Assembly: GCF_036588685.1 (NCBI RefSeq)
Contig: NC_086374.1
Location: 23,994,001 to 24,058,000 of the forward strand
Length of the DNA stretch: 64,000 nt
From: Mytilus trossulus
Lineage: Eukaryota
Reading direction: 5' to 3'
Positions 22,718 through 59,100 of the stretch are shown piece by piece; position 1 is the first letter of the stretch, and each line of letters starts with the position of its first letter. The notes under the pieces are model-generated. The model was given only the letters and a program-made list of their open reading frames with translations, was not told the origin of the DNA and did not search any database. The position numbers and the translations under genes were made by a program.

Positions 22718-23629
22718 CTGAGTTAAAGAGACAACTTATAAGTTGAGTTAAAGAGACAATTTATAGGTTGAGTTAAAGAGACAATTTATAGGTTGAGTTA
22801 AAGAGACAATTTATAGTTTGAGATAAAAGGACAATTTATAGGTTGAGATAAAAGGACAATTTATAGGTTGAGATAAAAGGACAATTTATAGGTTGAGTTA
22901 AAAGGACAATTTATAGGTAGAGTTATAAGGTCAAATTTATAGGTTGAGATAAAAGGACAATTTATAGGTTGAGATAAAAGGACAATTTATAGGTTGAGTT
23001 AAAAGGACAATTTATAGGTTGAGTTATAAGGTCAAATTTATAGGTTGAGATAAAAGGACAATTTATAGGTTGAGATAAAAGGACAATTTATAGGTTGAGT
23101 TAAAAGGACAATTTATAGGTTGAGTTATAAGGTCAAATTTATAGGTTGAGATAAAAGGACAATTTATAGGTTAAGACAAAAGGACAATTTATAGGTTGAG
23201 ATAAAAGGACAATTTATGGGTTGAGTTCAAAGGACAATTTATAGGTTGAGTTATAAGGACAATTTATAGGTTGAGTTATAAGGACAATTTATAGGTTGAG
23301 TTATAAGGACAATTTATAGGTTGAGATAAAAGGACATTTTATAGGTTGAGTTATAAGGACAATTTATAGGTTGAGTTATAAGGACAATTTATAGGTTGAG
23401 TTATAAGGACAATTTATAGGTTGAGTTATAAGGACAATTTATAGGTTGAGTTATGAGGACAATTTATAGGTTGAGTTATAAGGACAATTTATAGGTTGAG
23501 TTGTAAGGACAATTTATAGGTTGAGTTATAAGGACAATTTATAGGTTGAGTTATAAGGACAATTTATAGGTTGAGTTATAAGGACAATTTATAGGTTGAG
23601 TTATAAGGACAATTTATAGGTTGAGTTAA
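22718..23629. repeat. Tandem minisatellite, 25-bp unit GAGTTATAAGGACAATTTATAGGTT, about 36 copies
   Basis: Directly visible; variant units are arranged in blocks. Confidence 0.95.
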
Positions 23630-25857
23630 ACAACAGGAAATTTTTAGACTTTTAATACAAAGCGACTTCATAAATGTGTACATTGTATAAGGACATGTAG
23701 ATGCTGATATGATATGCATATCTAGATGCTAGTCCTTAGTATATTATGTATATTCCTACAGTCCTACTATAAAATTATTGTGCAGTTTTCAGATTAGTGT
23801 TGTCGGTATAAACTGCCTGTTAATCAAATTCATAGATGTTGTAAATTTAATTTTAAACATGCTGTTAAACATCTAGTGGAGATATATGTGGAATATATTA
23901 TTTGGTTTATCAATTTCAGTGAAAACTACCTATTATAAAACATTCTTTTTCATATGCTAATTCTAAACTACAAATTTGTGCTTGCGTCATAAAAAGTCAA
24001 TATGAACATGATATAACGTCATTATACAGTGTTGTAAATAAAAGTGCAACTCAATGTATAAATGATTCAGAGTCAATAACATTTTATAAATAAAAACATG
24101 TACATGCATTGCATATAAAATTATAATAATAATACAATAATAATTTTTTAACATCTCACAGTACTATGGAAAAAAGGTACTTTTTGAAAACATGTAATAT
24201 ACTTAAGTTAATCAGTTAATGCATGTGCGATGGATACTACCTAAATATATCAAGATACATATATGTAAGTTGTTAGTCACATTATTCATTTATTCTAGCT
24301 GATGAGAGGGGTACACAGACAATTATATATACATGTATATAAAAAAAAAAATTGCTAATTTGCCAACGCCGGCATAAAAAAAAAATTTGCTATTTTGCCG
24401 GCTTTGAGTAAAATTATATTACACAGGAATTTATTTGCAAGATAATTACTAAATATAAAACTCAACATTTATAAATTTAAACATTTGTTATTGTTACTTT
24501 AATAAACGCTTCAACTTTAGCCTATCAAATTGAAAAAAGTGTATGTTTATCAATATATATATAGACTTTATTCAAAGAGTTAACTTTCATAATTAATCTT
24601 CAATAAAAATTCATTTGTAGCATTTTATAGTGCAAGGAAAGCCATGTACTATGAAAAATAGGACTCGGGCAAAAAACTGATTTTTCATTGGACGAGAATA
24701 GGCGAGTATGTTCTAAATATTGATATATAACACTCCTTAAGGAAAAAAAACCATGATGTTTATGTATATCTTATGGCAATTCTATTAAAATTTCGAAAAA
24801 TAAAACAAACCAAAAGAACTTAAAAAGGGTGAGTACTTTAAACCTAAATAGTTGTTAAGTATATAGTATAGTGTGATAATGGATGATACAACTCCTGAAA
24901 TTAAGTTAAGCTAAATGCACAGTTTTATCCCTACAATGAGTTTGCAATGGTTATAAAATTATGAAAAGGAACATTTTGTTCAGCTGTGTAAAAGGGATGC
25001 ACGTACAATCAAAACCATGGAATGTCGAGCTCAAAACAGAGAGTTCAAAAAAAGAATTAGTATATGGGCACTTGAAGTTATACAAGTTATAATTACTGAA
25101 AAAGACATGTATGAAACAAAGGTTTTAGGGAAAGCTTTACTTTCAGCAAAGCTGCAGTTGTGACTGTTTCATGTTTTAAGGATTTTTAGACGAAATGTTT
25201 CAATCGAAAAATTGTGGATAACAGCTTGTGAGAAATTGCAAGCATTATAGAAATTATACAGAAATGGTCCACACGTAATTAGAGTATGAATATTTAACTT
25301 ACAAAGAACTGTGAGAAGAATCATCAAACTCAGTAATATCATACTACGACAGAAATTGGCACACAATCAGACATGAATGGGTTGATGGGCTAAAAGATGG
25401 TATTACTCTTTGGAATCGCACAAACAACAGGATTGAAAGAATAAAAATAAAATCTGTTCTCCATCACTACTTCATATTACCAGATTTTGCAAGAGACGCA
25501 AAAACTGTTACAATGAATCACAAGTCTTGCATCCGAAGCTACTGGTAATGAATATAAGCAGAGATTCGATATTATTTATGAATAAAATTCTTGAGAACCA
25601 GTTTCGCAAGATGGAGAACGAGATATAGCTCAACAAGAAGACACTTCTGTATTACAAAATAAATAAAATTGGTGTTTTTACTGTCTTCTGATTGGTTAAA
25701 ATTATAAGTTTTATTTTCAATGTTGTCAATTTTGATGGCGACACGCCCACTCTGACGTTTTGTATTCATACGCCAACATGTGTGTACGTTGTTATTGTTA
25801 ATATAAAAACAATATAAAAAGTACTTTGAGTCTTATTTTTGATAGAAATTTATTTAT

Positions 25858-29590: not shown

Positions 29591-31428
29591 ATGATATTCT
29601 GGGATGGATCCGAGGTAAGAACTATATATGAATCTTAGACATCTCTATATTGATAATACTTTTTTTACTTGCGTTGGTTCTATTTCGACTTGCCCTTCCA
29701 AAAGTTTAACATTACATTCTTTACAAAGCAGTTATTTTTGATTTTTTTAAAGTTTAAAAACTCGGTCCTAATTTAAAAAATTTAACAATATAATATTTCA
29801 ATACGTATTAGGGTCATGGTTTACTTTTTTCTGATGAACAAAAATGTAATTGTAGCAAAAAATGACGAGGGAATTTAATTTTGCAAACCTGTGGCTTGTC
29901 AGTTTTTTTTAATGCGAATTGTACCAACTACAAATGTATATGAATAATACATTGAAAATGATACACTTTTATATTTCACATTGTTATATAGAATGAATTT
30001 GAAGAGGAGAGAGAAAGACTGCACGATGCATCAACAGAACATCAGTTGTTACTTTTAAACGCCATATCTCTGAAATCACCTATAACAGAAATAACAAGTT
30101 TAATTGAAGCAGGTGCGTGTGTTAACAAGGCTGCCACGAACGGTATTCGACCTTTACACCATGCCGTTGACAAAAACTATGTGGAATGTGTTAGTTTATT
30201 ATTATTGAAAGGAGCAGAGATTAATGTTACCGACGAAAATGGATTAACACCCTTACTGTTATCTGCTTGCCGTGGGTATTTCAAAGCAATGCAAGTACTG
30301 ATAGATAATGATGCGATAATAAATTACTGCGATTCAGATAGGAAAGATGTCCCAAATTATATTCGAGAAATGGGTTATTTAACGTATGACCCTCTTAATA
30401 TGACCATCGAAAACAACCATGTACAATGTGTTAAGCTTTTATTAGAAAATGGAGCGCTTTCAAATAAAAAATACTACATGGGATATGAAATTAATTTGGT
30501 TCCAATCAACCATGTTACATGTTTAGAGTTGTTATTAAAGCACGGAGCGAATCCAAATTTGTGCAGTCGTTATGGGATGACGCCTCTTGTGAAAGCATGC
30601 AAAGAAAACATGGTAAATGCAGTTTGTCTTCTTCTGGGATTTGGCGCTGATGTGAATTTACAATGTAGATCCTGTTACAAGTGGAACACTCCACTAAATA
30701 CTGCGATAGAATACAATGCTACTAATGTAGTGAACATATTATTGCAAAGTGGTGCACACGTGTCCAAAGAAACTGGTTGTAAATACAGCCCTCTTCACGA
30801 GGCAGTCCTTTTAGACAGTCCTGACATCTGTCGGCTGGTATTGTCTTTTGGTGCGCGAGTAAACGATATGTCAGATGATCATTTTTCTCCTTTGATGCTA
30901 GCCGTGAAAACTTCAAAATTGTTGAATCGTGTGGAGATTATAACAATTCTTCTTCAGAATGGATCAGATCCTAATTTATATCATTCCTCTTCATCTGTCT
31001 CTGTCATTGGGCTGTACTTGAAAAACAACAAGACTTCTTTAGATAAAGCAGTTATATGTTTGCTATTACAGTATGGAGCAAACCTCAATTTCACAACGCG
31101 TTTGCCATGTGGTAAATCTGATCCTTTCGGTATACTTCTGCATTTGTCGGATTGTTGCCAGCAAGAAATATTACATTTACTTCTTACTACCACACGAAAT
31201 ATTGACAGAGAAGCAATTAAAAAGTGTGCTAATTTAAATCAGCATCAACGAGAATATCTTATGTGTCTTACTGCTACTCCGCGACAACTAGTATGTCTGA
31301 CACGAGGCTTTATATCGTACAACTTTGGGAGAGATCTTGTAGATAAAGTGAATGACTTACCATTACCCAAAACCATAAAAAGATATCTTATGTTTAAGGA
31401 AACAGAACAAACGGGAGTAGATACATGA
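29591..31428 (+). CDS. Ankyrin repeat and SOCS box protein (ASB-like), paralog B, about 486 aa (exons 29591-29614 and 29992-31428)
   Basis: Collinear with paralog A along its length (GIRPLHHAV, GLTPLLLSA, GMTPLVKAC, YSPLHEAV, DPFGIL, LPLPKTIKRYL). The short exon MIFWDGSE (donor gtaaga) joins in frame at acceptor 29990-29991. Confidence 0.88.
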
Positions 31429-32639
31429 CTTTTCCCTTATACTTTGACATTAACAGTGCACATTCATTTTTGAATTGTGATATTTTTTGTTTTGATTTCA
31501 AAGACAGTGTGTGTATTGGGGGTCTATTTGATAGAAAACTATCAGATATCACACTTCTTTGGGTACTAAACAATCCTAGTAATTCTACCAACACTGAACA
31601 TGATATACATTTTTGTTTGTAGCAGACTAAACACACTTTTCAAAAATATTTCTATAATACATACGATAAATAAAATTATTTCGATATCTTCAAAAAATGC
31701 ACTTGATCCCAACTCCATCACACAAAAAAACACCTACTAGTATATAAATATAAGAAACAATACAAACAAAAATACGAAAAAATGACACAATACATTAAAC
31801 AAATTAGAAACATAAAAACACTGATTGTTCATGACAGGTTTGGTGGTACAAGCAAAAGATCAACGAACCTTCGGATAGATGATGTAAAATGAACCAAATA
31901 TACGCTTATGAACAAAAAGTTGACAATATCCAAGGGAGTAGATCAGATTAACAAATTAGTATTGCACAATAGTTATCACCAAATATCTTGCTAGTGTCCG
32001 TCTAGAATAATCAAGTGTTGCCACAGATATATGTATCATCTGTTATGTTTACATGCAATTTTAATGTAGCTTTTTAAATTTAGTTGTTGAAATTGAAATA
32101 AAAATATTTATCATTTATTGTGCAATTAGTTAATGATACATGACGGATGTTGCAGCGCCAGACAAAGGGGCAACAGTCTTAATAGCTGTGTGTAAATATT
32201 TATTATGCCACGTGGTAAGATTTTATCATTTTTGGTCCACTACATCTTTAATAAAAGTATGAACAATTTTTCATTGTAGAACTGTATTTATTTTTCATAA
32301 TAAAAGCCCAAATATGGGTTAAAATTGATGAAAAATAAGATAATCCTTTAAAATGGATACTTTCAAATGGCCGTAGCATTTAAAAAGTGCTCACTCATAT
32401 GATTTTTTCTTCATTAATTATTTATTTACAGTCCCCCTATTATATATAAACTCGAAATTCAAATAATAACAAAAAAAAGTAAAATAACAAAATACCGCAC
32501 CCCTAGGAAAATCCAAAACTTGTGCAGTCGATGAACCATCTTACATGGGACTGTGCGTTTAGTCGTTAGTTGTCCCTCTTTTTAAAAAAAAACATACCTT
32601 ATCACAAACACCCAAAGGGTGACTGGGGAATAGAAATAT

Positions 32640-33040
32640 GGTCACTTGGTCTTCTCCCGACCGGCAGTAAAACGCTTGCGGAAGTGGGGTGTCCGTTTGG
32701 CTGTGCGGGATGTATTAAGTTCGCAGTCACGTCCGGTCAGAATGGGGACGTTAAATCCGATGTCTCGTGCAAAAAGAGTGCCACGATCTTTGCACGTTAA
32801 AAACCCTTGCAACAACTCTTTGAGGGCCCGTAGGTGACCTGTTGTAAGGCAACATTTCTGTCCCTATCCAATATACCCTCATTTGCCAGTGGCAGTCGAA
32901 ATTCCCCCAACTATCATCCCTTATGGTCTCTATTATGACAAGACCTACATATTGTATTTATTGTGAACTTGTTCTCGTCCTGAATATGCATGACATATTT
33001 ACCACTGGACGTTAAGCAACCAACAATCAATCAATCAACA
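32640..33040 (+). mobile_element. SINE-like element with a conserved core (GGGGACGTTAAA...GCACGTTAAAAACCC) and (CAAT)n tail
   Basis: GC-rich island ending GGACGTTAAGCAACCAACAATCAATCAATC, resembling mollusc core-domain SINEs. Family assignment is from recognition only. Confidence 0.6.
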
Positions 33041-34899
33041 AATTAGAAAACAAATTTTGCCGCCGCTAACGCAACCGACACAGCACGCCTCTTCGTAGAG
33101 GCGAGACAAAAAATAACTATACTAACATTTGTTCGCCCTCTTATAAAAATTCGGGTTGGTCTATACAACATGACTTGATATAATCCCTCAAGTATAAAAA
33201 ATAAAACAAAAACTTCAAGGCAAATTCAAAAAGGAGAGGTCCAATTAAAGCTGAAACCAAACGCTATCAATCAACGGAACAAAGTTAAAAACATCTGCTT
33301 TATAAGTTTATCAAATATGTCTGAAGAACAATTAAGAGTTTCGAAAGATGTCTCAAACCTTCATTTTGACATGTTGACAGTAGGCAATGGACAACGACTG
33401 CTACTTCATATACCATAAAACGTATAGTTTTTATACTACATTGAAAAAATATCGTATCTTTAATAAAATAAAAAGAATTTAATTTATTTACATAGAAAAA
33501 CGTAGCAGCACAGTTTTATCAAGGACGTAAACTTTTGTTTTTACTTCGAAATTGAGCATATTTAGGCTTGATTTTCGTTTATATTTATATGATAGGTTAA
33601 CAGTTCAAATATATCCATAAAGACATTTTACCGTGTTGCTCATTTATAACAGGTCCATTTGACTATTTTAACATTAAAGTTTTGTTATTGCACAAATAAA
33701 ACATCTTTTACCTAATGGAGTGTTTGCAAATTTACAATTTCAAATAAGAAAATATCGCGACTCCACACGAGAAGCGGTTTCTCGATTCGCACTTTCCATA
33801 TACTGATTATTGGACTTTCCCCCCGTTTATCTTAGCTTCGCAACTTTCGGGAATTCTTGGTACTGCACCCATCCCATTTGAGCAGTTTATTTTTCTTCCT
33901 ATTTTGGGGGGTTATTTTTATATCTATTGTTTGTTTTTATGGAAACTATTTTCACGCAAAATTTGATCAAATGCACCCGACCCTCCAGTGACCTTTGGGA
34001 ATATCACGTGCTATAATTTGTCAAACCCACCTTTCTTGTGTTTCAAATGCATTGACCTTGTTGTACAAACAGTTTTCCAGGTATAATAGATATGTTTATA
34101 AGATAAATCCGGGACAAAATTAATGTACATCATTGTTATCACGTAAAAGGCTATAATTAGTGATTTATTTACAAACTTCCCTTTATACATACCTTTGTAG
34201 ATGTTATGGTTGTTTGGTTATTTAACTTAAGATTGATAACCTTATTTGACATATCGTTTTAATATAGGACGCAGGTTTTAAAATCAATTTTCTAAGTATT
34301 GTGTTAAAATTCTGTCTTCATATGGAAACCATGAAATGATGAATATGACGACACACAAAGGTTGGTATTATACTTATTAATAATAATAGCTAGGTTTTTA
34401 CTAATTTCTGTTTATAACAATTATTCTTCTGTTTTGTAGAACGTACTACATGTATTAATTTAATAAGCGTATTTATGTTACGTATTGAGTAATAACTGTT
34501 TATAACAATTATTCTACTGTTATGTATAACGTACTACATGTATTAATTTAATAGCATATTTATGCTGCGTATGTTTCTGCACAATTCGCAAGGGAAACTA
34601 CAAGTCATAGTTTTGTTAGAAGGAATCAACATATACTATATTACCATCTTACGTATATAGATATAAGAAGATGTGGTATGAATGCCAATGAGACATCTCT
34701 CCATCCAAGTTACAATTTGTAAAATTAAACCATTATATGTTGCCATACGGTCTTCAACACGGAGCATTGGCTTACACCGAACAGCAAGCTATTAATGTAT
34801 ACATATATAATATATAAAAAGTCTAAATTATATGTATTGATAAATTAAAAAGTAAAATAATTAAACAATGTATATGTTATTTTACTATCTATTTTATGA

Positions 34900-35464
34900 A
34901 TATATATATATATATATAACTCGTCTAAACATCAACCCAACAATGTAAGATCTGTAAATTTGCTTTCGCAAATTTTTGGTTCTTCCCTCGCCGGGATTCG
35001 AACCCATGCTACTGTGATATCGTGACACCAAATCGCCTGCACTGCAGCCGTCCCGCTAGACCACACGACCACCTGGGCTCTACAATAATAGAGCTTTCGC
35101 TGGCCATGTGTTACCTTTCCTCGTCAGTTTTAATCTAGCGACGTACTACAGTACATGATATATAAGGCATGAAGATGTTTATATCATGTACGCCGCTAGA
35201 TTAAAACTGACGAGAAAAGGTACAGGCGATTTTGGTGTCACGATATCACAGTAGCATGGGTTCGAATCCCGGCGAGGGAAGAACCAAAAATTTGCGAAAG
35301 CAAATTTACAGATCTTACATTGTTGGGTTGATGTTAAGACGAGTTGTATATACATTATGTACACAGCCATGTATCACCATCATTAATGGCGATCCGATGG
35401 ATATATCTGTTGTAGAGTTGTCACTGACTCAGACGTACTTATATATATATATATATATATATAT
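34900..35464. mobile_element. (TA)n-flanked fold-back element with a tRNA-like segment and a hammerhead-like core
   Basis: Arm 34915-35040 is the reverse complement of 35223-35350, and arm 35112-35162 mirrors 35180-35222. The minus strand of about 35078-34985 has an A-box-like TGGTCTAGCGG and B-box GGTTCGAATCC. (TA)n runs lie at 34899-34917 and 35440-35464. Confidence 0.75.
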
Positions 35465-35659
35465 GCACATGCATTTTTTACGCCTATATATATTAAGCAT
35501 GTCAGTTATACCATTCAATCTTGTATCATCGCCTGAGGTCAGCTTCATTTTAGACATACTGCTATTCTTCTATGAGATTATAGCTTGTGGCAGGGAAAGT
35601 AGTCTGGAATGTATACATGAGAACCGTCTTGACAAGACATATATAGTTTCCCATTAAAT

Positions 35660-36385
35660 TGCAGATTTGTTTTAACTTTGCTGCAACTCATATAAAGTCT
35701 CCTTCTGTAATAAAAAAGTGAAATATTTATGATAAGTCTACTATGATATACTCACTGGAACAGTAACGAGATGATAAAAGTTGTCCCTTTTTTCTTTGAC
35801 AACACCTATGTACGTTTCGGCAATATAGTTTAAATAGTTAACAGTGATGAATCAGTCAAGAATTTCAATAACGGCCGGGAAACAGACTTCCAGTATACTT
35901 GCTTTCTGTAGGCCAAAAAGCCTAAAAGACTTGCTGATGAGAGCTGATTTATCCTATTAATCAGGCTTTTTGTCTGTGAGCTCTTGCAGGGGATACGGAA
36001 ACAAACGTTTTCTGACTTGCTTGCAAATACTGAATACCCTGACTTTAAACAGTCACTTCTGACACTAGTACGGACTAGACCATATTTTGCAATGTTAAAC
36101 GCAAGACTTCAAATGATACATGTATCGGCTTCAGTGTAAATGTGGTTATAGTTTGTTGACGAGTCAGAACAGTCATTTCACAAACGTATGAATAGCCATC
36201 ATAGCGTCTTCGAATGCAAGCAAGATTTTCTCCTTAGTCGACATTTGATATTTACACAAAGGCGGATTGCAATCGACTGACCATCACAACTGTTTGGTGT
36301 AGGTAGGATAGAATCGCCCAGGAAAGATTTTGGATAGGAAATATGAATTTTTTAGCACCAAATGCAATCAATAGAGAAGTGTAGA
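35660..36385 (+). mobile_element. Decayed Penelope-like element: short RT fragment plus linker and GIY-YIG endonuclease relic
   Basis: Frameshifted translations give YTHWNSNEMIKVV..FDNTYVRFGN, ILAFCRPKSLKDLLMRADL, YRLQCKCG, FVDESEQSFHKRMNSH..LLSRHL and ERFWIGNMNFLAPNAINREV*. These match PLE consensus motifs such as RRPKNLRDILV, YVGET..LxxRMNGH and ExFWI..L.P.GIN. Confidence 0.75.
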
Positions 36386-37090
36386 TCTAATTTGCGGAGT
36401 GTTTTTCATTTGGATTATATTACATACTATTAAAGCTATTACTACACAGTATCTGCTGCTATTGCATTACCTTTGTCTTATCTAAAATTCTAGATTTATA
36501 AAAAGTTTAAATCCCAGTGTGCTATGCATTTGAGATGTATAAGTACACAGCAACATTCAATTACAATTTACTTCATCTTTCTTTTCTTTTTTTTTCTAAT
36601 TTTTATCAAACTGCTATCTATTTGGGATGTGTAAAATATGCAGCCTTTGTTGTATTAGCTTTACCGTCGTCTTATTTAGAATAGTATACCAGTTCAAATC
36701 GGACAATGTTGTTCATTTGTTGACTTTCGTCACCTTTAGAATTTTAGAATTGTACCAATTCATATCGCACATTACTATTTTGTTAAAAGCATATATATGC
36801 CGTCAGTTGTAATTACCTAGTAACCTATGTCATTTTTGATTTATTATAATTGTACCAGTGTTGTTGTGTTCGGTTTTAATTGTATAAATTTAAAGATTGT
36901 TATAGTCAAATCAGAATAGATTGATTTGATTCATTCAACATCAGAAGGATCTGATATCTGTTATCCGATCATTTTTAGATAATTACTTTTAGACCAAAGT
37001 GTCGATTCTCTCAGCATAATAGTATTATTTTTTTCCGTAATCAAAATTATCATATTTTTATATGCTAACAATACCTTTTATTTCAGCTAA

Positions 37091-40000
37091 ATGGCAATCG
37101 TACTCCTGGTATTACTAATAAGTTATGCAGTACCGAATGTGAGTTCATATATATGTAGACATTCTCTGGCGCCAAACTTACTCTGCGTGTTGTCATAGAA
37201 TCATTGTCTTTTTGTTTTCCTTTTACTACACAGTCACTTGCCCTTCCTAAATTTCAAGGCAAGGACTCATACAAAACCAGCTAATCTGCGGGAATAACAG
37301 TATTTTCCATAGATTCCAAAACAAAGAAATGTTCAATAAATATATAATTAGAAAATAAAAAATATAAGAATGAGACAAACACACAAAGTAAATCATTACA
37401 ATTGGTTATAGACCCTTGTGAACGGTTCTACTATTAGCACAAAACACCTGAATGAGAGCAAATAGGTTATATAGACAAGTATTATAACCATCCATATTTG
37501 AATGAATATGTCTACTGAAAATTCATAGCATTATAGTAAGACATATAATAGTAATTGCATCAGTGAATGAAATAAAAATTGTTTCAGAATTTTTTTTTAT
37601 AGTTTTCTATTCTAGACTGAGATATAAATTCTACGCTTTATGATTTGAGTATAAAGTGCGTTAAATTGCTGTAGCTTACGAAATTTAACAATTACGAGAC
37701 CTACCAAAACAAAGAGATCCAAGAAATATTCCGAGATCAATCTTGCACATGCACTGTCAGAACTGCATTGAGATCATACTCCGGCAAAAGTTGTAATATA
37801 TCAAAGGTCATAACATATCAAAGGTCATTACATATCAAAGGTCATAACATCATACCAAAGGTCAAAATCAATTAAAAGGAGACAGACAATAACAAGGGGG
37901 CTAAAACAATAATTTTAATTAAAGCAAACAGTTCCAACGGCTAAAAAGAATAGGGGCTGAATTTTGGGGGATTTTGCTGTCATTTGTAACACATATATTC
38001 CATGAAAAGGAGAAACAAATCATTATGGCGTCCGTTAAACTTTAGATGATATAACTTTATCGCTACCATTTTAAACCATTGCTTCAATAATCTCATTGAA
38101 GTCAGTAACCTGCTATAAAAAAATTCTGATAGGAATCGCAAGTCATGAATTATCGAATTACCCGATATATACTCTATATGCAGATACAGCTTGAATGTTT
38201 TTATAAATTGAAAGTTGAATTTCTTGAAATTTCATATTTGATGTGAACTTCTTTTGTAATTTGATTGTCAACTATGAAACGAAACCGCCATAAGGACAGA
38301 AAAGAGGAGCAGTTGTTTCCCATAGGAATGCGGCAGATTATATGTTGAAAACGTTACAAATAGTTTATTTAATATCATTTATGTGTTCAACATATCTCTC
38401 TAATATGTTTTCTTTTTTGCTTGCAGATTTTATGCAATAGTATACCTGATATGGTACTAAACGGTAAGATATTTTTTTAACTACGTATTTGAGATTAACA
38501 CGATGCTATTTTTGAATAGACAACATCCGATTTTGACTAAATCTAAAAGTTTCACTTTAATTGACGAAGATTAACACTGTCCAGTACTACTCAATTTCTC
38601 AAAGGGATAACAAGTTATAAATCATTTACATCAGTTCAATTTATACGAACGATATATATCAGAACGATAGAAAAATAAGTTTTATAAAAACATTACATGA
38701 ACGTGAATTTCAAAACGCCTTGGTATTTCTATCAGTGGCGGGAGAAGTACGGTATTAAATAGTTTAATAACACATATTATAACCACAACAAACATACAGG
38801 AACTACAATGATTACTAGTATTAAATTCGATCATTAATGAGAAAAAACTATCATACCCATGAAATATACTAGTAACGTAAATCTGCCAAGACCTAGTCCA
38901 CACGTACAATTTGTATTGTTAGACTTGAGTAAGCATATAGAAAACTAACATTATCTTCACAATGAGACACACAGTTCGGCCACACTTGAAAGTATTTTGG
39001 TTTTCCCAAACCCTACCAAATGTAAAGACTGCGTATGTAGGTATTGGTAGGCTATTTTTTTTTTTTATTTTGAAAAAGAGAAATGGAAGTGTCGGATGTT
39101 TTTTTTTGTCGTGCAAATTTGATTAAAACAAAACTTTTTCTAATCGAGGCAATAACAGATTTTGAGTAGGCAGCTATAGGTAGAAAGGGTTAGAACAAAC
39201 ACAAATAATATTTATTATGGCCTTGTATATCTTTCCCCCTCTAGTCTATACTACATGCGCACCAGATGTAAACGGAACAGCACACATATCAGTGGTGTCA
39301 GATAAAGCTGTCGACGTTTTGATAGACTGTAGAAATCATGAGGTGTACAATGTGAATCAAACTGGACCACCAGAATATTACAATACAACAGTGCAGTACC
39401 CTGAAAACGTTACTGAACCAGGTTGTGTATTTACAGTGAGTATGTACATGCACCCATAAAATATGTTTTTGTAGACTGTTGGTCGTCTTTTGATCAGCTT
39501 ATGGTTTTGTCATAGCATTGTCAATCAGTTTTTGTAGACTGTTGGTCGTCTTTTGATCAGCTTATAGTTTTGTCATAGCATTGTCAATCAGATGGTTTTG
39601 TCATAGCATTGTCAATCAGTTTTTGTAGACTGTTGGTCGTCTTCTGATCATCTTATGGTTTTGTCATAGCATTGTCAATCAGTTTTTGTAGACTGTTGGT
39701 CGTCTTTTGATCGTCTTATGGTTTTGTCATAGCATTGCCAATCAGTTTTTTTAGACTGTTGGTCGTCTTTTGATCGTCTTATGGTTTTGTCATAGCATTG
39801 TCAATCAGTTTTTGTAGACTGTTGGTCGTCTTTTGATCAGCTTATAGTTTTGTCATAGCATTGTCAATCAGATGGTTTTGTCATAGCATTGTCAATCAGT
39901 TTTTGTAGACTGTTGGTCGTCTTCTGATCATCTTATGGTTTTGTCATAGCATTGTCAATCAGTTTGTGTAGACTGTTGGTCGTCTTTTGATCGTCTTATG

Positions 40001-43000
40001 GTTTTGTCATAGCATTGCCAATCAGTTTTTTAGACTGTTGGTCGTCTTTTGATCGTCTTATGGTTTTGTCATAGCATTGCCAATCAGTTTTTGTAGACTG
40101 TTGGTCGACTTTTGATCATCTTATAGTTTTGTCATAGCATTGTCAATCAGTTTTGTAGACTGTTGGTCGTCTTTTGATCGTCTTCTAGTTTTGTCATAGC
40201 ATTGTCAATCAGTTTTTGTAGACTGTTCGTCGACTTTTGATCGTCTTATAGTTTTGTCATAGCATTGTCAATCAGATGGTTTTGTCATAGCATTGTCAAT
40301 CAGTATTTGTAGACTGTTGGTCGTCTTCTGATCATCTTATAGTTTTGTCATAGCATTGTCAATCAGTTTTTGTAGACTGTTCGTCGACTTTTGATCGTCT
40401 TATAGTTTTGTCATAGCATTGTCAATCAGATGGTTTTGTCATAGCATTGTCAATCAGTTTTGTAGACTGTTGGTCGACTTTTGATCATCTTATAGTTTTG
40501 TCATAGCATTGTCAATCAGTTTTTGTAGACTGTTGGTCGTCTTTTGATCGTCTTATAGTTTTGTCATAGCATTGTCAATCAGTTTTTGTAGACTGTTCGT
40601 CGACTTTTGATCGTCTTATGGTTTTGTCATAGCATTGTCAATCAGTTTTGTAGACTGTTGGTCGTCTTTTGATCGTCTTATAGTTTTGTCATAGCATTGT
40701 CAATCAGTTTTGTAGACTGTTGGTCGACTTTTGATCATCTTATAGTTTTGTCATAGCATTGTCAATCAGTTTTGTAGACTGTTGGTCGTCTTTTGATCGT
40801 CTTATAGTTTTGTCATAGCATTGTCAATCAGTTTTGTAGACTGTTGGTCGTCTTTTGATCATCTTATAGTTTTGTCATAGCATTGTCAATCAGTTTTGTA
40901 GACTGTTGGTCGTCTTTTGATCGTCTTATAGTTTTGTCATAGCATTGTCAATCAGTTTTGTAGACTGTTGGTCGTCTTTTGATCATCTTATAGTTTTGTC
41001 ATAGCATTGTCAATCAGTTTTGTAGACTGTTGGTCGACTTTTGATCGTCTTATAGTTTTGTCATAGCATTGTCAATCAGTTTTTGTAGACTGTTGGTCGT
41101 CTTTTGATCGTCTTATAGTTTTGTCATAGCATTGTCAATCAGATGGTTTTGTCATAGTATTGTCAATCAGTTTTTGTAGACTGTTGGTCGTCTTTTGATC
41201 ATCTTATGGTTTTGTCATAGCATTGTCAATCAGTTTTTGTAGACTGTTGGTCGTCTTTTGATTAGCTTATTGTTTTGTTATAGCATTGTCAATCAGTTTT
41301 TGACTAATGAGTGTGACTACCCGCCTCTCTTTTTATCACTTAGATATACACTTCTCTTATTTATGTTTTCTTTTTAACGAGGTCGTGAGATGTTTATCGA
41401 CACTAGCTGATACACGAGTATTTCTGTTTTCAGTGATATTTTTTAACAATGTCATTAAGCGGGAGGTTATCTTACCTTAAAACGAGGTTCAACCCACCAT
41501 CTTTTCTTTGTACCGAGTCGGGAATATTGCATTTGTTGACTTATAGTTCGTTGCTGTGTATGTTGGCGATTGTTTTTGTTGCACTTCAGTGTTCCTGTTG
41601 TATCTTTGTTTTCCTCTTATAGTTGATATGTTAGTTTGTAACCCGGATTTGTTTTATTTCAATCGATTTATGACTTTTGAACACTGGTATACTTTACTGT
41701 TGCCTTTATATATAACATAACTTCATATGTTTTGCTATCTTAATATGAACACTTATGGTCCTACATCCTGTCAATTCTTGTATTGTGTTCAAACAATCAA
41801 TTTCACACCGTATGATTTTAATCATATATAATATTTTAAAGATACTTTTAAACCATAATTGTTCACATCTTAAATATGTTCATTTTTTGTTTTGTTAGAA
41901 AAAGGCCAACTCTAATGCTTATTATGCGACAGTAGAGATATCATACAGCGACGAGTCTGGAGTTAGACGTGTGGTAGACACATACATTGTAACGTGTACA
42001 TATGATACCCACAACGACAGTATATCATCAGTCATAGAAGTATCCAGATCGTATGTATATATATATATATATGTAAATTATGCTGTGTCTATGGTAGAAT
42101 TTGTTTGTGTGTTTTTTTTCCTGTGTTATATGATTTTCTCGATTTCAGTATTTGAAGACAGAACCTTTCCTTGCACTAGTATAAGATATATTCCAAATCT
42201 GGATGTATATAGATATATAAGAATATGTGGTATGCGTGCCTATGAGACAACTCTCGGGACATCCAAGTCACAATTTGTAAAAGTAAACCATTATAGGTCA
42301 AAGTACGGTCTTCAACACGGAGCCTTGGCTCACACCGAACAGCAAGCTATAAAGGGCCCCAAAAATGACTAGTGTGAAACCATTCAAACCGGAAAACCAA
42401 CGGTCTAATCTATATAAAAATCTAGAAATACTTATATGAAGCACACCAACAAACGACTACTGAACATGTATGTACGAATAACAGGATGGATGTGTAGAAT
42501 TGGAACAATCAGTTACTAGTACTTAATTTAACTTTATGTCCTATTTAGTCTGGTTCCAACGAAACAGTTACAGAGTCATATAGGACATACTGCAAGCTCA
42601 GCATTTACTATGGAAGTTCAGGATGTCTTAGGACGCACAATTACTGGAAATATAGGTTTCAGAACAAAAATACGACTGGTGATAACTATGTCTGGTAAGC
42701 GATTTTTTCATTTAGACTTTTAGTAGTTTCTATAGTAGAATTGCAGAAATATAATGCTTTGATAATCAATAACAGGATGCATTGATTTAAAAAAAAATGA
42801 ATATGAAATGGTTACAAGTGCTATTTTAATTCTTAAAATTAATGTAACTTTGGTAAAGGATCATATAGTAATAATCTAGATACAAACAGAACGGTAGAAT
42901 ATATGTCATGCACACCTGAATAAGTGGGCAAGATAATATTGTTGTCGTTTACTTGATATTGTAGGTACAGCCACAGAGAAAGGTTTTAAAGTAGTCAATT

Positions 43001-46000: not shown

Positions 46001-48905
46001 TAATTTTGAATTCTTTACACCTTTGAAATGTCTGCTATTCATCTATAATGCAATTGATTTGATAAAAATTGTTAAAAGCTGCGGTTATTTTTTTTTAAAT
46101 AGATGTGTAAAAACGGCGAATATGTGTCCCCCATTGACAAAACATCCGTAAATTTCATACACCCTTTAATCTAACTTTTCAGATGATTTTTTTCAAACAA
46201 ACCCGTTTTCAAGCTTAAGAATATTTTGCATTTGAAGTTATCTTCATATAGAAATATCAGTATACTTAAAAAACATTTAGACCTGCCCATAAACTGTAGA
46301 AAACATGGAAAGATGTGGCGAAAATGAGCACCCCACTCTATATATGTTGAACCACAAACGTCAAAGTCATTCAATCGCGTTGTGGAATTAACTATTTTTG
46401 GATTCTCATAAATTCTACCTATAACTTTTGGACTAGTTTAAATCTCGGTCTATTTCTGTAATTTGTTCTTACCGTACTTTTGATTTTTTAACTCTGTATG
46501 CTTACATTGCCTATGTAAATTTTAAAACTGTTTGTATATTGTCCCTTTTAAAATTGTTATGCGATGATGACTGATGTACCCATATTTTGACTATTTTATT
46601 AATTGTGACTGTTTATTCTTTACGTGACTTTTACGTCTATATTGTGTACCATTCTTTACATCTATATCTTGTAGTGTACCATTCTTTACATCTATATTTT
46701 GTACCATTCTTTACATCTATATTTTGTACCATTCTTTACATCTATATTTTGTACCATTCTTTACGTCTATATTTTGTACCATTCTTTACATCTATATTTT
46801 GTACCATTCTTTACATCTATATTTTGTACCATTCTTTACATCTATATTTTGTACCATTCTTTACGTCTATATTTTGTACCATTCTTTACATCTATATTTT
46901 GTACCATTCTTTACGTCTATATTTTGTACCATTCTTTACATCTATATTTTGTACCATTCTTTACATCTATATTTTGTACCATTCTTTACCTCTATATTTT
47001 GTACCATTCTTTACATCTATATCTTGTGCCATTCTTTACGAGACTTTTACGTCTATATTGTGTACCATTCTTTACATCTATATTTTGTACCATTCTTTAC
47101 ATCTATATTTTGTACCATTCTTTACATCTATATTTTGTACCATTCTTTACATCTATATTTTGTACCATTCTTTACATCTATATTTTGTACCATTCTTTAC
47201 CTCTATATTTTGTACCATTCTTTACATCTATATCTTGTGCCATTCTTTACGAGACTTTTACGTCTATATTGTGTACCATTCTTTACATCTATATTTTGTA
47301 CCATTCTTTACGTCTATATTTTGTACCATTCTTTACATCTATATTTTGTACCATTCTTTACGTCTATATTTTGTACCATTCTCTACATCTATATTTTGTA
47401 CCATTCTTTACATCTATATTTTGTACCATTCTTTACATCTATATTTTGTACCATTCTTTACATCTATATTTTGTACCATTCTTTACATCTATATTTTGTA
47501 CCATTCTTTACCTCTATATTTTGTACCATTCTTTACATCTATATCTTGTGCCATTCTTTACGAGACTTTTACGTCTATATTGTGTACCATTCTTTACATC
47601 TATATTTTGTACCATTCTTTACGTCTATATTTTGTACCATTCTTTACATCTATATTTTGTACCATTCTTTACGTCTATATTTTGTACCATTCTCTACATC
47701 TATATTTTGTACCATTCTTTACCTCTATATTTTGTACCATTCTTTACCTCTATATTTTGTACCATTCTTTACCTCTATATTTTGTACCATTCTTTACATC
47801 TATATTTTGTACCATTCTTTACATCTATATTTTGTACCATTCTTTACCTCTATATTTTGTACCATTCTTTACATCTATATCTTGTGCCATTCTTTACGAG
47901 ACTTTTACGTCTATATTGTGTACCATTCTTTACATCTATATTTTGTACCATTCTTTACGTCTATATTTTGTACCATTCTTTACATCTATATTTTGTACCA
48001 TTCTTTACGTCTATATTTTGTACCATTCTCTACATCTATATTTTGTACCATTCTTTACATCTATATTTTGTACCATTCTTTACATCTATATTTTGTACCA
48101 TTCTTTACATCTATATCTTATACCATTCTTTTTAAATCTTATTCCATTATTCGAAGACATCCAAAAAAAAAAATCATGATGAATTCATTCTGTCCTCTTT
48201 TATTTTATTTTTAAATAGACATAACAATGAATAAATATTACAGTACATGTCATATCCTATTGTCAGATATTTAGATTTGAGTAGCATATTTAACTCATTA
48301 TTTGTTATTAATTTTATATACCCAGGACATTGAATATACAATTAATGTAAATGTCATTTCTTATTGACTGATTAAACCTGTGTCTTTTTTTATTCTCAGA
48401 TATCAAGAATGAAGAAAACAAAGTTCAGACAGCAGTTATACGAGTTACTGGTCCAGATATTAGTAAAACTACAAACCCAGGCGTGTCGTCTCAATCAGAC
48501 AAACCATTGCAGTCCACAATATTGGAACCAGTCAAAAGTTCTAAAAGAATAACTGTTTTAAAACCATACAATAATTTTAAAAAGAACGCTGTTCATGGAC
48601 TGCAAAATAATATAACAAGATCAGCTAAATTATCAAATATGTTCACTAAAATGTTCCTACCTGCACAGCACCAAACAAAATCTACAATAAACCTAAACAC
48701 CCATTCTTCCAAGAAAAGGTTCACACATGACCAAATTGGAGCAATAGTGGGCTGTTCATCGTTCCTTCTGATGATAGGACTATTTTTAGGCATTACTTTA
48801 TGGCATATTAAGCAAAAGAATAACATTGAATCACAATACCGTACTCTCAGGGTTTCTGATGTTAGTAGCTTGAAGGTTCATTTACTCGACAATGATGAAG
48901 AGTAA
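37091..48905 (+). CDS. ZP-domain (vitelline-envelope/VERL-like) transmembrane precursor, 467 aa. Exons 37091-37138, 38427-38463, 39245-39435, 41899-42050, 42549-42694, 42965-43052, 43543-43696, 45129-45210, 48400-48905.
   Basis: All introns are GT-AG with consistent phases and the CDS totals 1404 nt. Signal peptide MAIVLLVLLISYAVPNILC; four-Cys ZP-N-like region; ZP-C-like motif SGCGDG..GFETDGLVARSPYFKSF..FQCTFNTCEEKCDGDSC; furin site RRRRKR; hydrophobic patch VQTAVIRV; TM helix IGAIVGCSSFLLMIGLFLGITLW. Confidence 0.85.
39467..41303. repeat. Intronic satellite, ~61-62-bp unit (TTTTGTAGACTGTTGGTCGTCTTTTGATCGTCTTATAGTTTTGTCATAGCATTGTCAATCAG), about 30 copies with interspersed half-units
   Basis: Directly visible; starts about 30 nt after the ZP exon 3 donor. 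Confidence 0.95.
45812..46340. mobile_element. MITE with 24-bp perfect TIRs and TAG...CTA ends (Academ-like termini)
   Basis: TAGAGTGGGGTGCTCATTTTCGCC at 45812 and GGCGAAAATGAGCACCCCACTCTA ending at 46340. Confidence 0.8.
46615..48130. repeat. Intronic minisatellite, 25-bp unit TGTACCATTCTTTACATCTATATTT, about 58 copies
   Basis: Directly visible. A variant unit containing CGAGACTTTT recurs at about 47040, 47250, 47561 and 47897. Confidence 0.95.
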
Positions 48906-50169: not shown

Positions 50170-50310
50170 AATCCATATGCTCTTCAACTTCGCACTTCAT
50201 TTGACTTTCTTAACTTTTTTGATTCGATGACCACTGACGAGTCTTTTGTAGACGAAACGCGCATCAGGCGTACAAAATTTCAATCCCGGTATCTATGACG
50301 AGTTTATTTG
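50170..50310 (+). ncRNA. Second copy of the hammerhead-containing repeat; degenerate ribozyme at about 50228-50271
   Basis: CTGACGA (50234-50240), GTCT-TTTGT-AGAC, GAAA, CGCGCA, TC, AGGCGT. Stems I and III carry mismatches relative to the copy at 34-77. Confidence 0.7.
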
Positions 50311-56100: not shown

Positions 56101-59100
56101 ATCTCCAGCTAAGGAAGGGGTTAATTGAAGGTCACATGAATACGGATTCAATAAGTTGGAATAAATCACTTTCAAGTGAATAATTTATCAGCGAGGTTTC
56201 TTATCTTATTTTGAGAAAATTGACCCAAAATGTCTGCTTAAAGCAAAGATTATTAAATCATTTCACTTTCATTTGTGATTGAACAATAAAATAATGTTTT
56301 ATTTAAAAAAAATATATATCAAAGATGACCTTATGGCCCTGAATATTTGATCTTGTAACGGAAGGTTTTTTAAAAATTCTAAATTTTATAAGTTTATTTA
56401 ACATGTTTTTCTCTACAGATTTGCGTGCTTCAAATCCAGATGAATGTGTTCCTCGCACAGAAATAGAAAAAATTGCAAAAGAAGCTGGGTTAGAATATTA
56501 TGAGACCAGTGCACTAACGCAAGATGGCTTGAAACGTTGTTTTGATAGCGCAGTAAGCTGACATTTGTAATACGTTTTATATCTTTGTTATTCTTTTCTA
56601 TATCCAGGTGACCTTAAATTAATATTATGATTTTAAATAGATGATTATCATATAAAAAAAGCAAATTAAAAAAAGCAGAAAAACATTTTTTGATGCATTA
56701 ACTCAACCTACCGCTTGTACCGAACGAACAAAATATTGTGACACAAAATTTGACAAAGACTAATACAAGTATTTTTTTTTTCACAACCAGATTCAATTCG
56801 GAATAGCAGGAAACCGAAAAAAGACAAAATCTAAATCAGGATTTGGAATATTTAAGAAGAAGAAACCAGATGACCCCATCCCTCCAGTGATGCCTCCAGC
56901 TGGTAAGTCAGAATATCTTATATCCCCAATGATGCTATCGATGATTAGCTAAATGATCTTATATCCCCAATGATGCTATCGATGATTAGCTAAATGATCT
57001 TATATCCCCAATGATGCTATCGATGATTAGCTAAATGATCTTATACCCTATTGACGATATCGATAGGCAAGCTAAATGATCTTATAACCCTATTGACGAT
57101 ATCGATAGGCAAGCTAAATGATCGTATATCCCCAATAATGCTACCGATATAGGCAAGCAAAATGATCGCATGTCCCAAATGATGCTATATATAGGCAAGC
57201 TAAATAATCGTATATCCCCTCCCTGATGCCATCAATAGGCAAGTTAAATGATCTTATATTCCCATTGATGCTTTCGATAGGCAAGTTAAATTATCGTATG
57301 TTACCATTGATGCTTTCGATAGGCAAGTTAAATGATCGTATATTCCCATTGATGCTTTCGATAGGCAAGTTAAATGATCGTATGTTCCCATTGATGCTTT
57401 AGATAGGCAAGTTAAATGATCGTATATTCCCATTTATGCTATCGATATGCAAGCTAAATGATCGTATATCCCCAATGATGCTATCGATAGGAAAGCTTAA
57501 TGATACTATAATAATCACCATTGATTCTTTCGAAAGACAAGCTTAATGATACTATAATAATCCCTAATGATGGTTTCGATAGGCAAGCTTAATGATACTA
57601 GTATAATAATCACCATTAATGCTTTCGATTGACAAGCTAACTGATCGTATATCCCATGTTATGCTATCAATAGACATGATCTCATACCCCCAATGATGCT
57701 ATCGATAGGCGATTCAAATTATCTTATGATCCCTATTAATACTATCGATAGGCATACTAAATGAAAGTATATCCCCATTGACGCTATCGATAGACAAGCT
57801 AAATGATAGTATATCCCCATTGACGCTATCGATAGACAAGCTAAATGAAAGTATATCCCCAATGACGCTATCGATAGGCAAGCTAAATGATAGTATATCC
57901 CCATTGACGCTATCGATAGACAAGCTAAATGATAGTATATCCCCATTGACGCTATCGATAGACAAGCTAAATGATAGTACAAAAATGTATATCCCCATTG
58001 ACGCTATCGATAGACAAGCTAAATGAAAGTATATCCCCATTGACGCTATCGATAGACAAGTTAAATGATAGATATAGGAAGATGTGGTGTGAGTGCCAAT
58101 GAGACAACTCTCCATCCAAGTAAAAATTTAAAAAGTAAACCATTATAGGTTAAAGTACGGCCTTCAACACGATGCCTTGGCTCACACCGAACAACAAGCT
58201 ATAAAGGGGCTATCGATAGACAAGCTAAATGATAGTGTATCCCCATTGACGCTATCGATAGACAAGCTAAATGATAGTTTATCGGTCGTCCCACTGTCTA
58301 TATCACTTGGTTCAACGCTTAATATTATTCCGTATCATGTCTTTGTGACGTCAAATACGTTGACCCGGCCTTAATAACTTTGACCCGGACATATCAGCGA
58401 CGTCATAATGTTTGAACCGACGTTAATAACTTTGACCCGAACTTATCAAGTCATCTTTTGTGTGCTGGTGAAACAAAGAAAACACTTCTGAAACACGCAA
58501 AATATAGCCCGATAAATTGATTATCAGATTATCTGCATATTGATATTGTAAAATATCAGCTTCTTGACATTATATGAAGGCTTTTTGATCTCGTTCGCTA
58601 CGCTCACTCGACAAAAAGCTTCATATTATGTCTCGCAGCTGATATTTTACGATATCAACATGCAGATAACCTGATAATCGGTACATATCCCCATTGACGC
58701 TATCGATAGACAAGCTAAATGAAAGTATATCCCCATTGACGCTATCGATAGACAAGCTAAATGATAGTATATCCCCTTTGACGCTATCGATAGACAAGCT
58801 AAATGAAAGTATATCCCCAATGACGCTATCGATAGACAAGCTAAATGATAGTATATTCCCATTGAGGCTATCGATAGACAAGCTAAATGATAGTATATTC
58901 CCATTGAGGCTATCGATATTCAGATTATCTTAAGTCACCAGTTATACTATCTATATGCAAGTCAGATGATCTTTTATTTCAATTGGTGATATCGGTGGAT
59001 GATTCAGATGATCTGAAATCCCTATAGACAAATCGGAAGATCTTATATCCCATGTGATACTATCGAGATAGGTCAGATGCTTCATATCCCTAGTGATGCT

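Follow-up and report, generated by a model that had tools for sequence, protein, structure and literature searches.

The question raised by this locus is what kind of element lies folded back on itself within a (TA)n tract at positions 34900 to 35464 of the 64,000-nt stretch of Mytilus trossulus DNA that was analysed (the window), and by what machinery it arrived there. The initial annotation had described a fold-back element in which a hammerhead-like core runs directly into a tRNA-like head, and had proposed that it was a non-autonomous passenger of a Penelope-like element (PLE). Two 5'-truncated copies of a 441-base non-coding repeat, set back to back, make up the insertion. The inverted arms are real (34908-35032 with 35231-35355, at 98%, and 35112-35146 with 35188-35222), as are the (TA)n tracts that flank the insertion on both sides; the fold-back, on the other hand, is not the design of the element, the true unit being 441 bp and the inversion being the usual inverted, 5'-truncated PLE arrangement.

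The left (TA)n target tract (34900-34918, from the sequence and the list of TA runs) abuts the 3' end of the minus-strand arm (34919-35179), which is 5'-truncated, comprises unit positions 1 to ~263 and matches the natural unit at 96% (BLAST). This arm terminates at a fixed 3' end, site 1 (34918-34945, minus; defined by end counts and alignment), where a GT-rich run and AGACGAGTT are followed by TA. The motifs named in the initial annotation are all found on the minus strand at the positions given for them: CGCTAGA (35140-35134), CTGACGA (35127-35121), GAAA (35098-35095), the paired GCTCTA/TAGAGC (35094-35089 and 35082-35077) and TCTAGCG (35060-35054). Also on this strand are a minimal-hammerhead-like motif (35087-35131), composed of AAAA (35131-35128), CUGACGA, stem II, GAAA, GC, U16.1 (35092) and C17 (35091); a short hairpin (35077-35094), previously termed 'stem III', the loop of which reads TTATTG in the window copy and is a T7 run in most family copies; a tRNA-Leu-like head that is not a foldable tRNA (34986-35078), with an A-box-like motif (35071-35061) and a B box (35004-34994); and, downstream of the head, a perfect 8-bp hairpin with a GAAA loop (34956-34975). 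A partial antisense copy of the head occupies 35101-35140 (minus), where CGCTAGA and ACACATGGCCA are separated by a bulge of ~20 nt.

The plus-strand arm starts at the head-to-head inversion joint with unit positions ~18-68, carrying an 8-nt deletion (35180-35222), and it keeps CTGACGA at 35207-35213, as had been noted. The reported loss of ~70 nt corresponds to the absence of unit positions 69-137 (69 nt), after which the arm continues with unit positions 138 to ~357 (35220-35439), including a B box (35259-35269). It passes through site 1 (35337-35352) and stops at a second fixed 3' end, site 2 (AGACGTACT, 35431-35439), against which the right (TA)n target tract (35440-35464) abuts. Elsewhere in the window, a single open frame of 478 amino acids (29992-31428, plus) reads by eye like an ankyrin-repeat and SOCS-box protein, and long minisatellite arrays are seen at 22719-23630 and 46630-48131 (25-bp units), 39465-41302 (63 bp) and 56915-59869 (42 bp).

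Considered on its own, this locus holds a damaged copy of the 441-bp family. A search of the 1.3-Gb genome with the minus arm returned 2,738 first-look candidates, with copies 441-442 bp apart, and an exact 27-letter site-1 pattern was matched 7,833 times, which places the family at no fewer than 7,833 units; by hand count, 36 of the first 100 such matches are joined to TA repeats. The repeat consists of ORF-less tandem units dispersed over many contigs, in arrays of up to 18 units, with arrays of 12-18 units present. Fold-backs are frequent, and in one case of 24 units, two runs of ~11 and ~13 units meet head to head, and site 1 forms the outer end of each. With copies oriented as the head reads, their 5' ends are scattered, and their 3' ends are fixed at either of two unit positions, ~264 and ~357 (93 nt apart), where the sequence runs into TA repeats. 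Seventeen of 22 distinct loci, picked on the stretch lying between the two 3' sites, terminate at one or the other (hand count), and in a second set, selected in part on site 1, two intervals that together make up 10% of the unit hold 103 of 140 segment ends. The 5' breakpoints include small piles at unit 96-101 (10/137, three of them from a single event) and at the GAAA-loop hairpin (11/137 within unit 217-222), both of which are explained by hairpin pausing.

These ends bear directly on the fallback offered in the initial annotation, an ordinary tRNA-derived SINE with an inversion, which would here be LINE-driven, with the inversion and the ribozyme-like letters due to chance. The repeat does resemble the bivalve tRNA SINEs described in the accessible text of PMC11481361 in having a tRNA-like head with A and B boxes and in falling within their 200-700 nt range, and tandem and palindromic SINE structures are reported there from bivalves; moreover, the loose hammerhead pattern, consisting of the core halves and a 5-bp hairpin, was also produced by 17 of 100 window shuffles and so is not, by itself, beyond chance. 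The SINEs of that account have LINE tails, target site duplications (TSDs) of 6-18 bp and a fixed 5' head, whereas in the repeat only 10 of 137 5' ends lie at the head, copies extending upstream across it, and the 3' ends are two internal sites that are common to an autonomous element of the Neptune type (see below). Neither a LINE-like tail nor a fixed head is found, TSDs are unreadable within (TA)n, and inversions and arrays are the rule rather than the exception. The mapping of the ends thus contradicts an ordinary SINE, which we consider very improbable. A Leu-type family of ~440 nt with TA ends is likewise absent from the 30 of 37 Mytilida rows of Supplementary Table 2 of PMC11481361 for which descriptions could be compared, and the tRNA-bearing LTR elements of PMC10886601 are, from the portion at hand, a class other than this repeat.

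The tRNA-derived head with A-box-like and B-box motifs was correctly recognised. A local alignment running through both boxes to the genome's tRNA-Leu(CAG), the one tRNA with which the head was compared, gives a score of 152 (0/1000 shuffles). ARAGORN finds no tRNA in the 64-kb window, and Rfam gives no tRNA or ribozyme match in 30000-40000 or in six family loci. With the antisense copy that precedes the head, the region is predicted to fold as a rod in which 35101-35140 pairs with 35054-35072 (-39.7 kcal/mol, z -3.6, 0/200 shuffles); the same rod is obtained for two other copies, and the predicted structure buries both the A box and the hammerhead motif. About 95 tRNA-Leu(CAG) genes are arranged in tandem at 401-bp spacing elsewhere in the genome (L119-L128; G000:C9:15399582-15438159), and a second array, with a spacing of ~426 bp, lies on C83.

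What, then, is the source of the two 3' ends? A decayed PLE had been reported ~200 nt from the insertion; the element is real, although its coding remnant begins at 35896, ~430 nt away. This remnant (35896-36435, plus), which is outside the insertion, retains the linker and GIY-YIG part of a Neptune-type PLE and is followed by a 3' UTR remnant (36742-36991). Between the insertion and the decayed PLE, a possible decayed hammerhead-like remnant ending in GAAACGTAC is visible by eye at ~35795-35860 (minus). The decayed neighbour led to two young PLE families, A (to which it is 76% identical), with an intact ORF of 934 amino acids, and B, with 928 amino acids. Both proteins have the order reverse transcriptase (RT), Cys linker and C-terminal GIY-YIG-like motif, the first from an RVT_1 match and the others by eye (CKGCGNKRCLTC linker; VYLLQC..YVGES), the GIY-YIG motif being without a Pfam match. 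Named from this domain layout, the families may be Neptune-type, with Nematis also possible; they are called Neptune A and Neptune B here. Copies with twin 3' ends lie at L069 (minus), L107:1157-4680 and L103:4710-8300.

Each family has two sites, separated by 87-91 nt, at which it finishes in (TA)n, and unit positions 236-414 of the repeat are collinear with the terminal region of Neptune A, with both sites in register, such that site 1 of the repeat corresponds to the first of the two 3' ends in the Neptune-type element. The score for this range, which was picked after looking, is 200, compared with 110 ± 16 for shuffles, none of 1000 reaching it. The similarity to Neptune A is weaker when the whole unit is aligned (16/1000 shuffles), the alignment to Neptune B is not significant (323/1000 and 76/1000), and unit positions 1-100 have no homology with the core region of Neptune A (754/1000). 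The site-1 signature of the repeat and of Neptune A, with CATGTATC and with GATC downstream, recurs in a third TA-inserted family, which is non-coding and carries a CUGAAGA..GAAA core (L072:235-560, L092:2640-3300, L109). The repeat is present at 14 of 30 Neptune-A loci, a number that includes pairs of arms from one insertion, and at 10 of them it lies within 4 nt; this co-location owes part to the common target. Two loci considered as a parent element, L111 and L112, were rejected, being old joins of a unit 3' end to a truncated Neptune element; the join at L111:2264-4181 and L112 is present as a tandem duplicate and again at a second locus.

The repeat therefore displays the sequence features of a non-autonomous PLE: a 3' end like that of an autonomous PLE, a fixed 3' end with 5' truncation, tandem and inverted copies, and a microsatellite target. 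These match the insertion features of PLEs set out in the available part of PMC8557442, where Neptune-type elements and Chlamys MRC1 are described with 5' truncation, partial tandems, an inverted 5' copy, a second end, a bias to microsatellites and 3'-end similarity to an autonomous family. In this respect the initial annotation is supported: Penelope-type footprints of a non-autonomous element ((TA)n targets, common fixed 3' ends, tandem and inverted copies) were found, among them the tandem organisation, (TA)n targeting and ends shared with an autonomous PLE that it had suggested checking. As judged from these sequence footprints, the repeat has very probably been mobilised by Penelope-type machinery. 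It differs from the elements of PMC8557442 in that its second end lies 93 nt away, as opposed to a tail of 30-40 bp, and in having a tRNA-derived head and RNA reads that run round the whole unit; no such head is mentioned for MRC1-type elements in the part of that paper available to us.

The hammerhead requires more caution. As first drawn, it had a 6-bp stem III and C at position 16.1, with a cut at GCC/A, near 35075, that would free an RNA starting at the tRNA head. The 6-bp hairpin is indeed maintained in the family, with some compensating changes, and the distal CGCUAGA/UCUAGCG pairing occurs in the predicted fold. However, U16.1 and the first, proximal pair of stem I are missing, either of which is given as grounds for rejection in the consulted sections of PMC3088659; A9 is lost in most copies; and no pile of RNA 5' ends is seen near 35075 in the reads examined. 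A scan that covered each of the six block orders of a hammerhead, among them the non-circular orders in the available text of PMC10085705, recovered one of two canonical controls and yielded no hammerhead fold for the window arm in any order, even with position 16.1 left free. We regard the fold as originally drawn as scarcely credible. Long-range hits from tandem copies in the same scan were discarded, being merely the local motif repeated, and the best block-order scores of Neptune A and B (12 and 14) lie inside the null (95th percentile 16).

A short hairpin of at least 5 bp is present in 112 of 135 locus-level rows, with arms GCTCT/AGAGC in 90, GCTTT/AGAGC in 13, GCTTT/GAAGC in 5 and GCTTC/GAAGC in 1. 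This region is the most variable stretch of the unit; a few of its variants are changed on both sides, and the copies are too alike for a covariation test. A search for diverged relatives gave one metagenome match, which is near identical.

A different register of the same letters is more informative. Copies with the T run contain a local minimal hammerhead, with an AAAA/UUUU stem I (4 bp), a 2-bp stem II, GAAA, a palindromic AGCU and a site after CUC, and here U16.1, paired to A15.1 and followed by H17, is present (GAAA-GC-U-C), whereas the register first proposed has C instead. This stricter reading of a T-run copy is found in 0 of 20,000 unit shuffles, with a descriptor that was set after the motif was seen and that leaves position 9 free, and for this reason the motif is likely to be a real relic. 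It resembles the minimal hammerheads of PLE pLTRs, as described in the available text of PMC4209133, in its short A-U stem I, core, GAAA, palindromic 2-nt loop and U16.1-H17, and it fits such a Penelope-type motif better than it does the fold first drawn. It departs from them in stem II, which has 7-8 bp in the pLTR motifs and 2 bp at its base in the repeat, and in position 9, where the dominant form has U. Neptune A and B share an almost identical hammerhead-like core of 28 nt, which has 1 bp of stem I in A and, in B, a U at position 3 and a full minimal fold. The segment 34956-34995 (minus), just past the B box, aligns opposite the core of Neptune A and may be a second, more decayed hammerhead core.

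Position 9 divides the family. It is U in 4,622 of 5,392 genomic copies (86%) and A in 770, the CUGACGA form accounting for 14%. The window copy itself has the complete core (C3 U4 G5 A6 N7 G8 A9), unlike the family majority, which departs from it at A9, and it retains GAAA (G12 A13 A14 A15.1), conserved at 92-98% per position among 60 copies; its stems I and II are, however, reduced to 1 bp each, while many U9 copies have a 4-bp stem I and a 2-bp stem II. A9, a 2-bp stem II and GAAAGC occur together in only 169 of the 5,392 copies, the fold is complete in 6 of 35 A9 rows (most of the remainder lacking stem I or II), and the complete type I hammerhead in each unit that defines retrozymes is not found. 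The U9 copies are the younger, with a median divergence of 1.0% compared with 4.2% for A9 copies, and an unbroken T run tracks the state of position 9 (25/25 U9 rows versus 20/33 A9 rows), a linkage that is real but confounded by descent and is not taken as proof. By the criteria in the consulted sections of PMC3088659, in which any core change disqualified a hammerhead candidate, and by general knowledge, according to which the effect of A9U was judged, the hammerhead look-alike is likely crippled in the window copy and in most others, and in the dominant form the hammerhead is quite probably dispensable. Canonical-looking type I hammerheads with sequences unlike the repeat family occur in the window at 28-80 and 50222-50280 (both plus); the former passed the descriptor and the latter did not, and they likely belong to a described mussel retrozyme family.

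The foremost alternative takes the repeat for a genuine retrozyme whose minimal hammerhead is of variant form, and in which two tandem motifs would pair through the palindromic AGCU and cut after CUC (35091/35090), with RtcB-type ligation closing a circle and the tRNA head acting merely as a promoter, as in Schistosoma SM-alpha. The match of T-run copies to the minimal type I fold speaks for this alternative; motifs of this kind act as dimers and have low activity in vitro (PMC4209133, in the part available); A9 and the full fold are found together in some long young arrays (L173, L186); and Neptune B has the same type of motif. Set against this are the replacement of A9 by U in the great majority of copies and of reads (85-89%), the scarcity of complete folds among the older A9 copies, the predicted rod, which buries the site, and the single base pairs left to stems I and II in the window copy. 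A ribozyme-driven circle is on this evidence unlikely.

The RNA data, from four raw 2026 runs, show that the unit is abundantly transcribed. Three runs, of 8.7, 8.3 and 7.3 million records, contain 4,671, 5,937 and 3,814 unit reads respectively, which come almost entirely from one strand, the sense of the head provided that the libraries are of the usual stranded type; this corresponds to 520-720 reads per million records, compared with 30 in the fourth run. In the three abundant runs 8-9% of unit reads extend into flanks, and in the fourth (X24), the library of which is maybe unstranded, the 386 reads lie in both directions and 62% enter flanks. Coverage is unbroken round the whole unit: the arbitrary joint is crossed by 1,633, 2,112 and 1,217 reads, and the T run is crossed in one run (X21) by ~790 reads against a local depth of 870-1,020, that is, by 80-90% of the depth; the internal T4 is likewise read through. 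No pile of RNA starts or ends is found at the T run, and no site has as many as a fifth of the starts or ends. The A9 forms make up 11-15% of the RNA and 14% of the genome, and are thus neither enriched nor depleted. The dominant RNA has all the features of the minimal hammerhead save A9, beyond chance. The T-run joint is more varied among reads than the control joint (main class 521 of ~793 listed reads versus 1,633 of ~1,722), but this is no sign of fresh ligation, because the genome is equally varied there, plain T7 accounting for ~60% of reads and for 16 of 25 U9 rows in the genome.

Reads covering the whole unit would come equally from a circular RNA and from multimers read through genomic arrays. 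The repeat could accordingly be a Penelope passenger with a linear multimeric template of this kind, no circle being made and unequal exchange perhaps extending the arrays. The arrays of 12-18 units would yield identical reads and joints, arrays are also formed by copies in which the T run is broken, and the reads show no fresh junction scars, all of which are consistent with a linear template. Yet Pol III would be expected to terminate at T7, which most of the depth crosses; passive Pol II read-through looks unlike the abundant RNA, if the possibly unstranded X24 is a guide to it; and the variant at the T-run joint is uniform inside an array and different between arrays. A linear multimer, too, we hold to be improbable.

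The family is likely a retrozyme-like Penelope passenger with a vestigial ribozyme, the unit RNA of which is likely made by Pol III and ligation. Its unit combines a head resembling tRNA-Leu, a terminal region like that of Neptune, in which two TA-rich sites lie, and a minimal-hammerhead-like motif, and from these parts the following sequence of events may be proposed. Pol III would start just past one T run and terminate at the following one, so that the transcript would be one unit long, with ends that would pair within the short hairpin; such pairing would help ligation, and a host ligase would close the molecule, in keeping with reads that cross the T run as freely as they cross other positions. 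The Neptune GIY-YIG domain would nick (TA)n, and the RT would prime at the UAUAUA of either 3' site and copy round the template, generating arrays, fixed 3' ends and scattered 5' ends. The joining of two cDNAs head to head would produce fold-backs, the pattern observed in the window having its left end at site 1 and its right end at site 2. The hammerhead motif would be a relic of a retrozyme or pLTR ancestor.

The steps of this scheme differ in their standing. A Pol III promoter placed after T7, together with reads that cross T7, suggests a unit RNA ligated end to end, and transcription of the unit by Pol III appears rather probable from its sequence. Termination at the T run cannot be the sole route, because the older subfamily to which the window copy belongs, with a broken T run, has formed arrays regardless (L003). 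Uniform arrays, internal 3' ends and scattered 5' ends are what repeated copying round one circle predicts, and a uniform multimer or growth at the DNA level fits the array pattern too; on balance, we favour a circular template. For the chain as a whole, in which the repeat shares its 3' ends with a Neptune-type PLE and probably entered (TA)n by means of that element's enzymes, from an RNA that is likely circular and likely made with no active hammerhead, the chances seem about even. Tentatively, and with rather more doubt than belief, the repeat may be called a circular SINE of Penelope elements, in which the ribozyme would have been replaced by Pol III start and stop, with U-tail ligation by the host and rolling-circle target-primed reverse transcription (TPRT) from two internal sites.

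Compared with known systems, the repeat is closest in its workings to the metazoan non-LTR retrozymes, which include families of 350-390 bp in Mytilus galloprovincialis (PMC7229834; bioRxiv 10.64898/2026.07.22.740005; in the sections available of each). Both consist of short tandem units with no ORF, yield abundant RNA, are proposed to be copied by PLE enzymes in rolling-circle fashion and are related in sequence to pLTRs. Every unit of the retrozymes bears an active type I hammerhead of canonical form, as opposed to a core broken at A9 in most units of the repeat, and the available text mentions no tRNA head for the retrozymes, whereas the 441-bp repeat has a tRNA-Leu-like head and a built-in antisense arm. 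The repeat would work like a non-LTR retrozyme, yet it lacks the complete hammerhead per unit, and it is set apart from the mussel retrozymes by their descriptions. The Schistosoma SM-alpha and Sj-alpha elements (PMC6765202, in the part consulted) also combine a Pol III-type promoter with a hammerhead in a tandem unit, and multimers are needed for their propagation; the SM-alpha hammerheads cleave in vitro, in contrast to the minimal and mostly broken motif of the repeat, which differs further in having a T run at the unit joint and Neptune-type PLE ends. Our literature search found no description of this repeat family or of a tRNA-headed PLE passenger.

How PLEs choose their RNA and assemble tandem and inverted insertions is an open question, for which the available text of PMC8557442 calls for an in vitro system. 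The repeat supplies a young, highly expressed substrate of 441 nt with two mapped candidate priming sites and a candidate intact partner ORF, and with the sites mapped and this partner in hand the question of the PLE template becomes testable. If a circle is made without a ribozyme, it would represent a route to abundant animal circular RNA outside the retrozyme and back-splicing models; if, instead, the U9 motif does cut, the hammerhead core would be extended. Should the reading as a circular SINE prove true, the hand-over from one mode to the other would be preserved within a single genome, in copies of the older A9 and the younger U9/T7 form.
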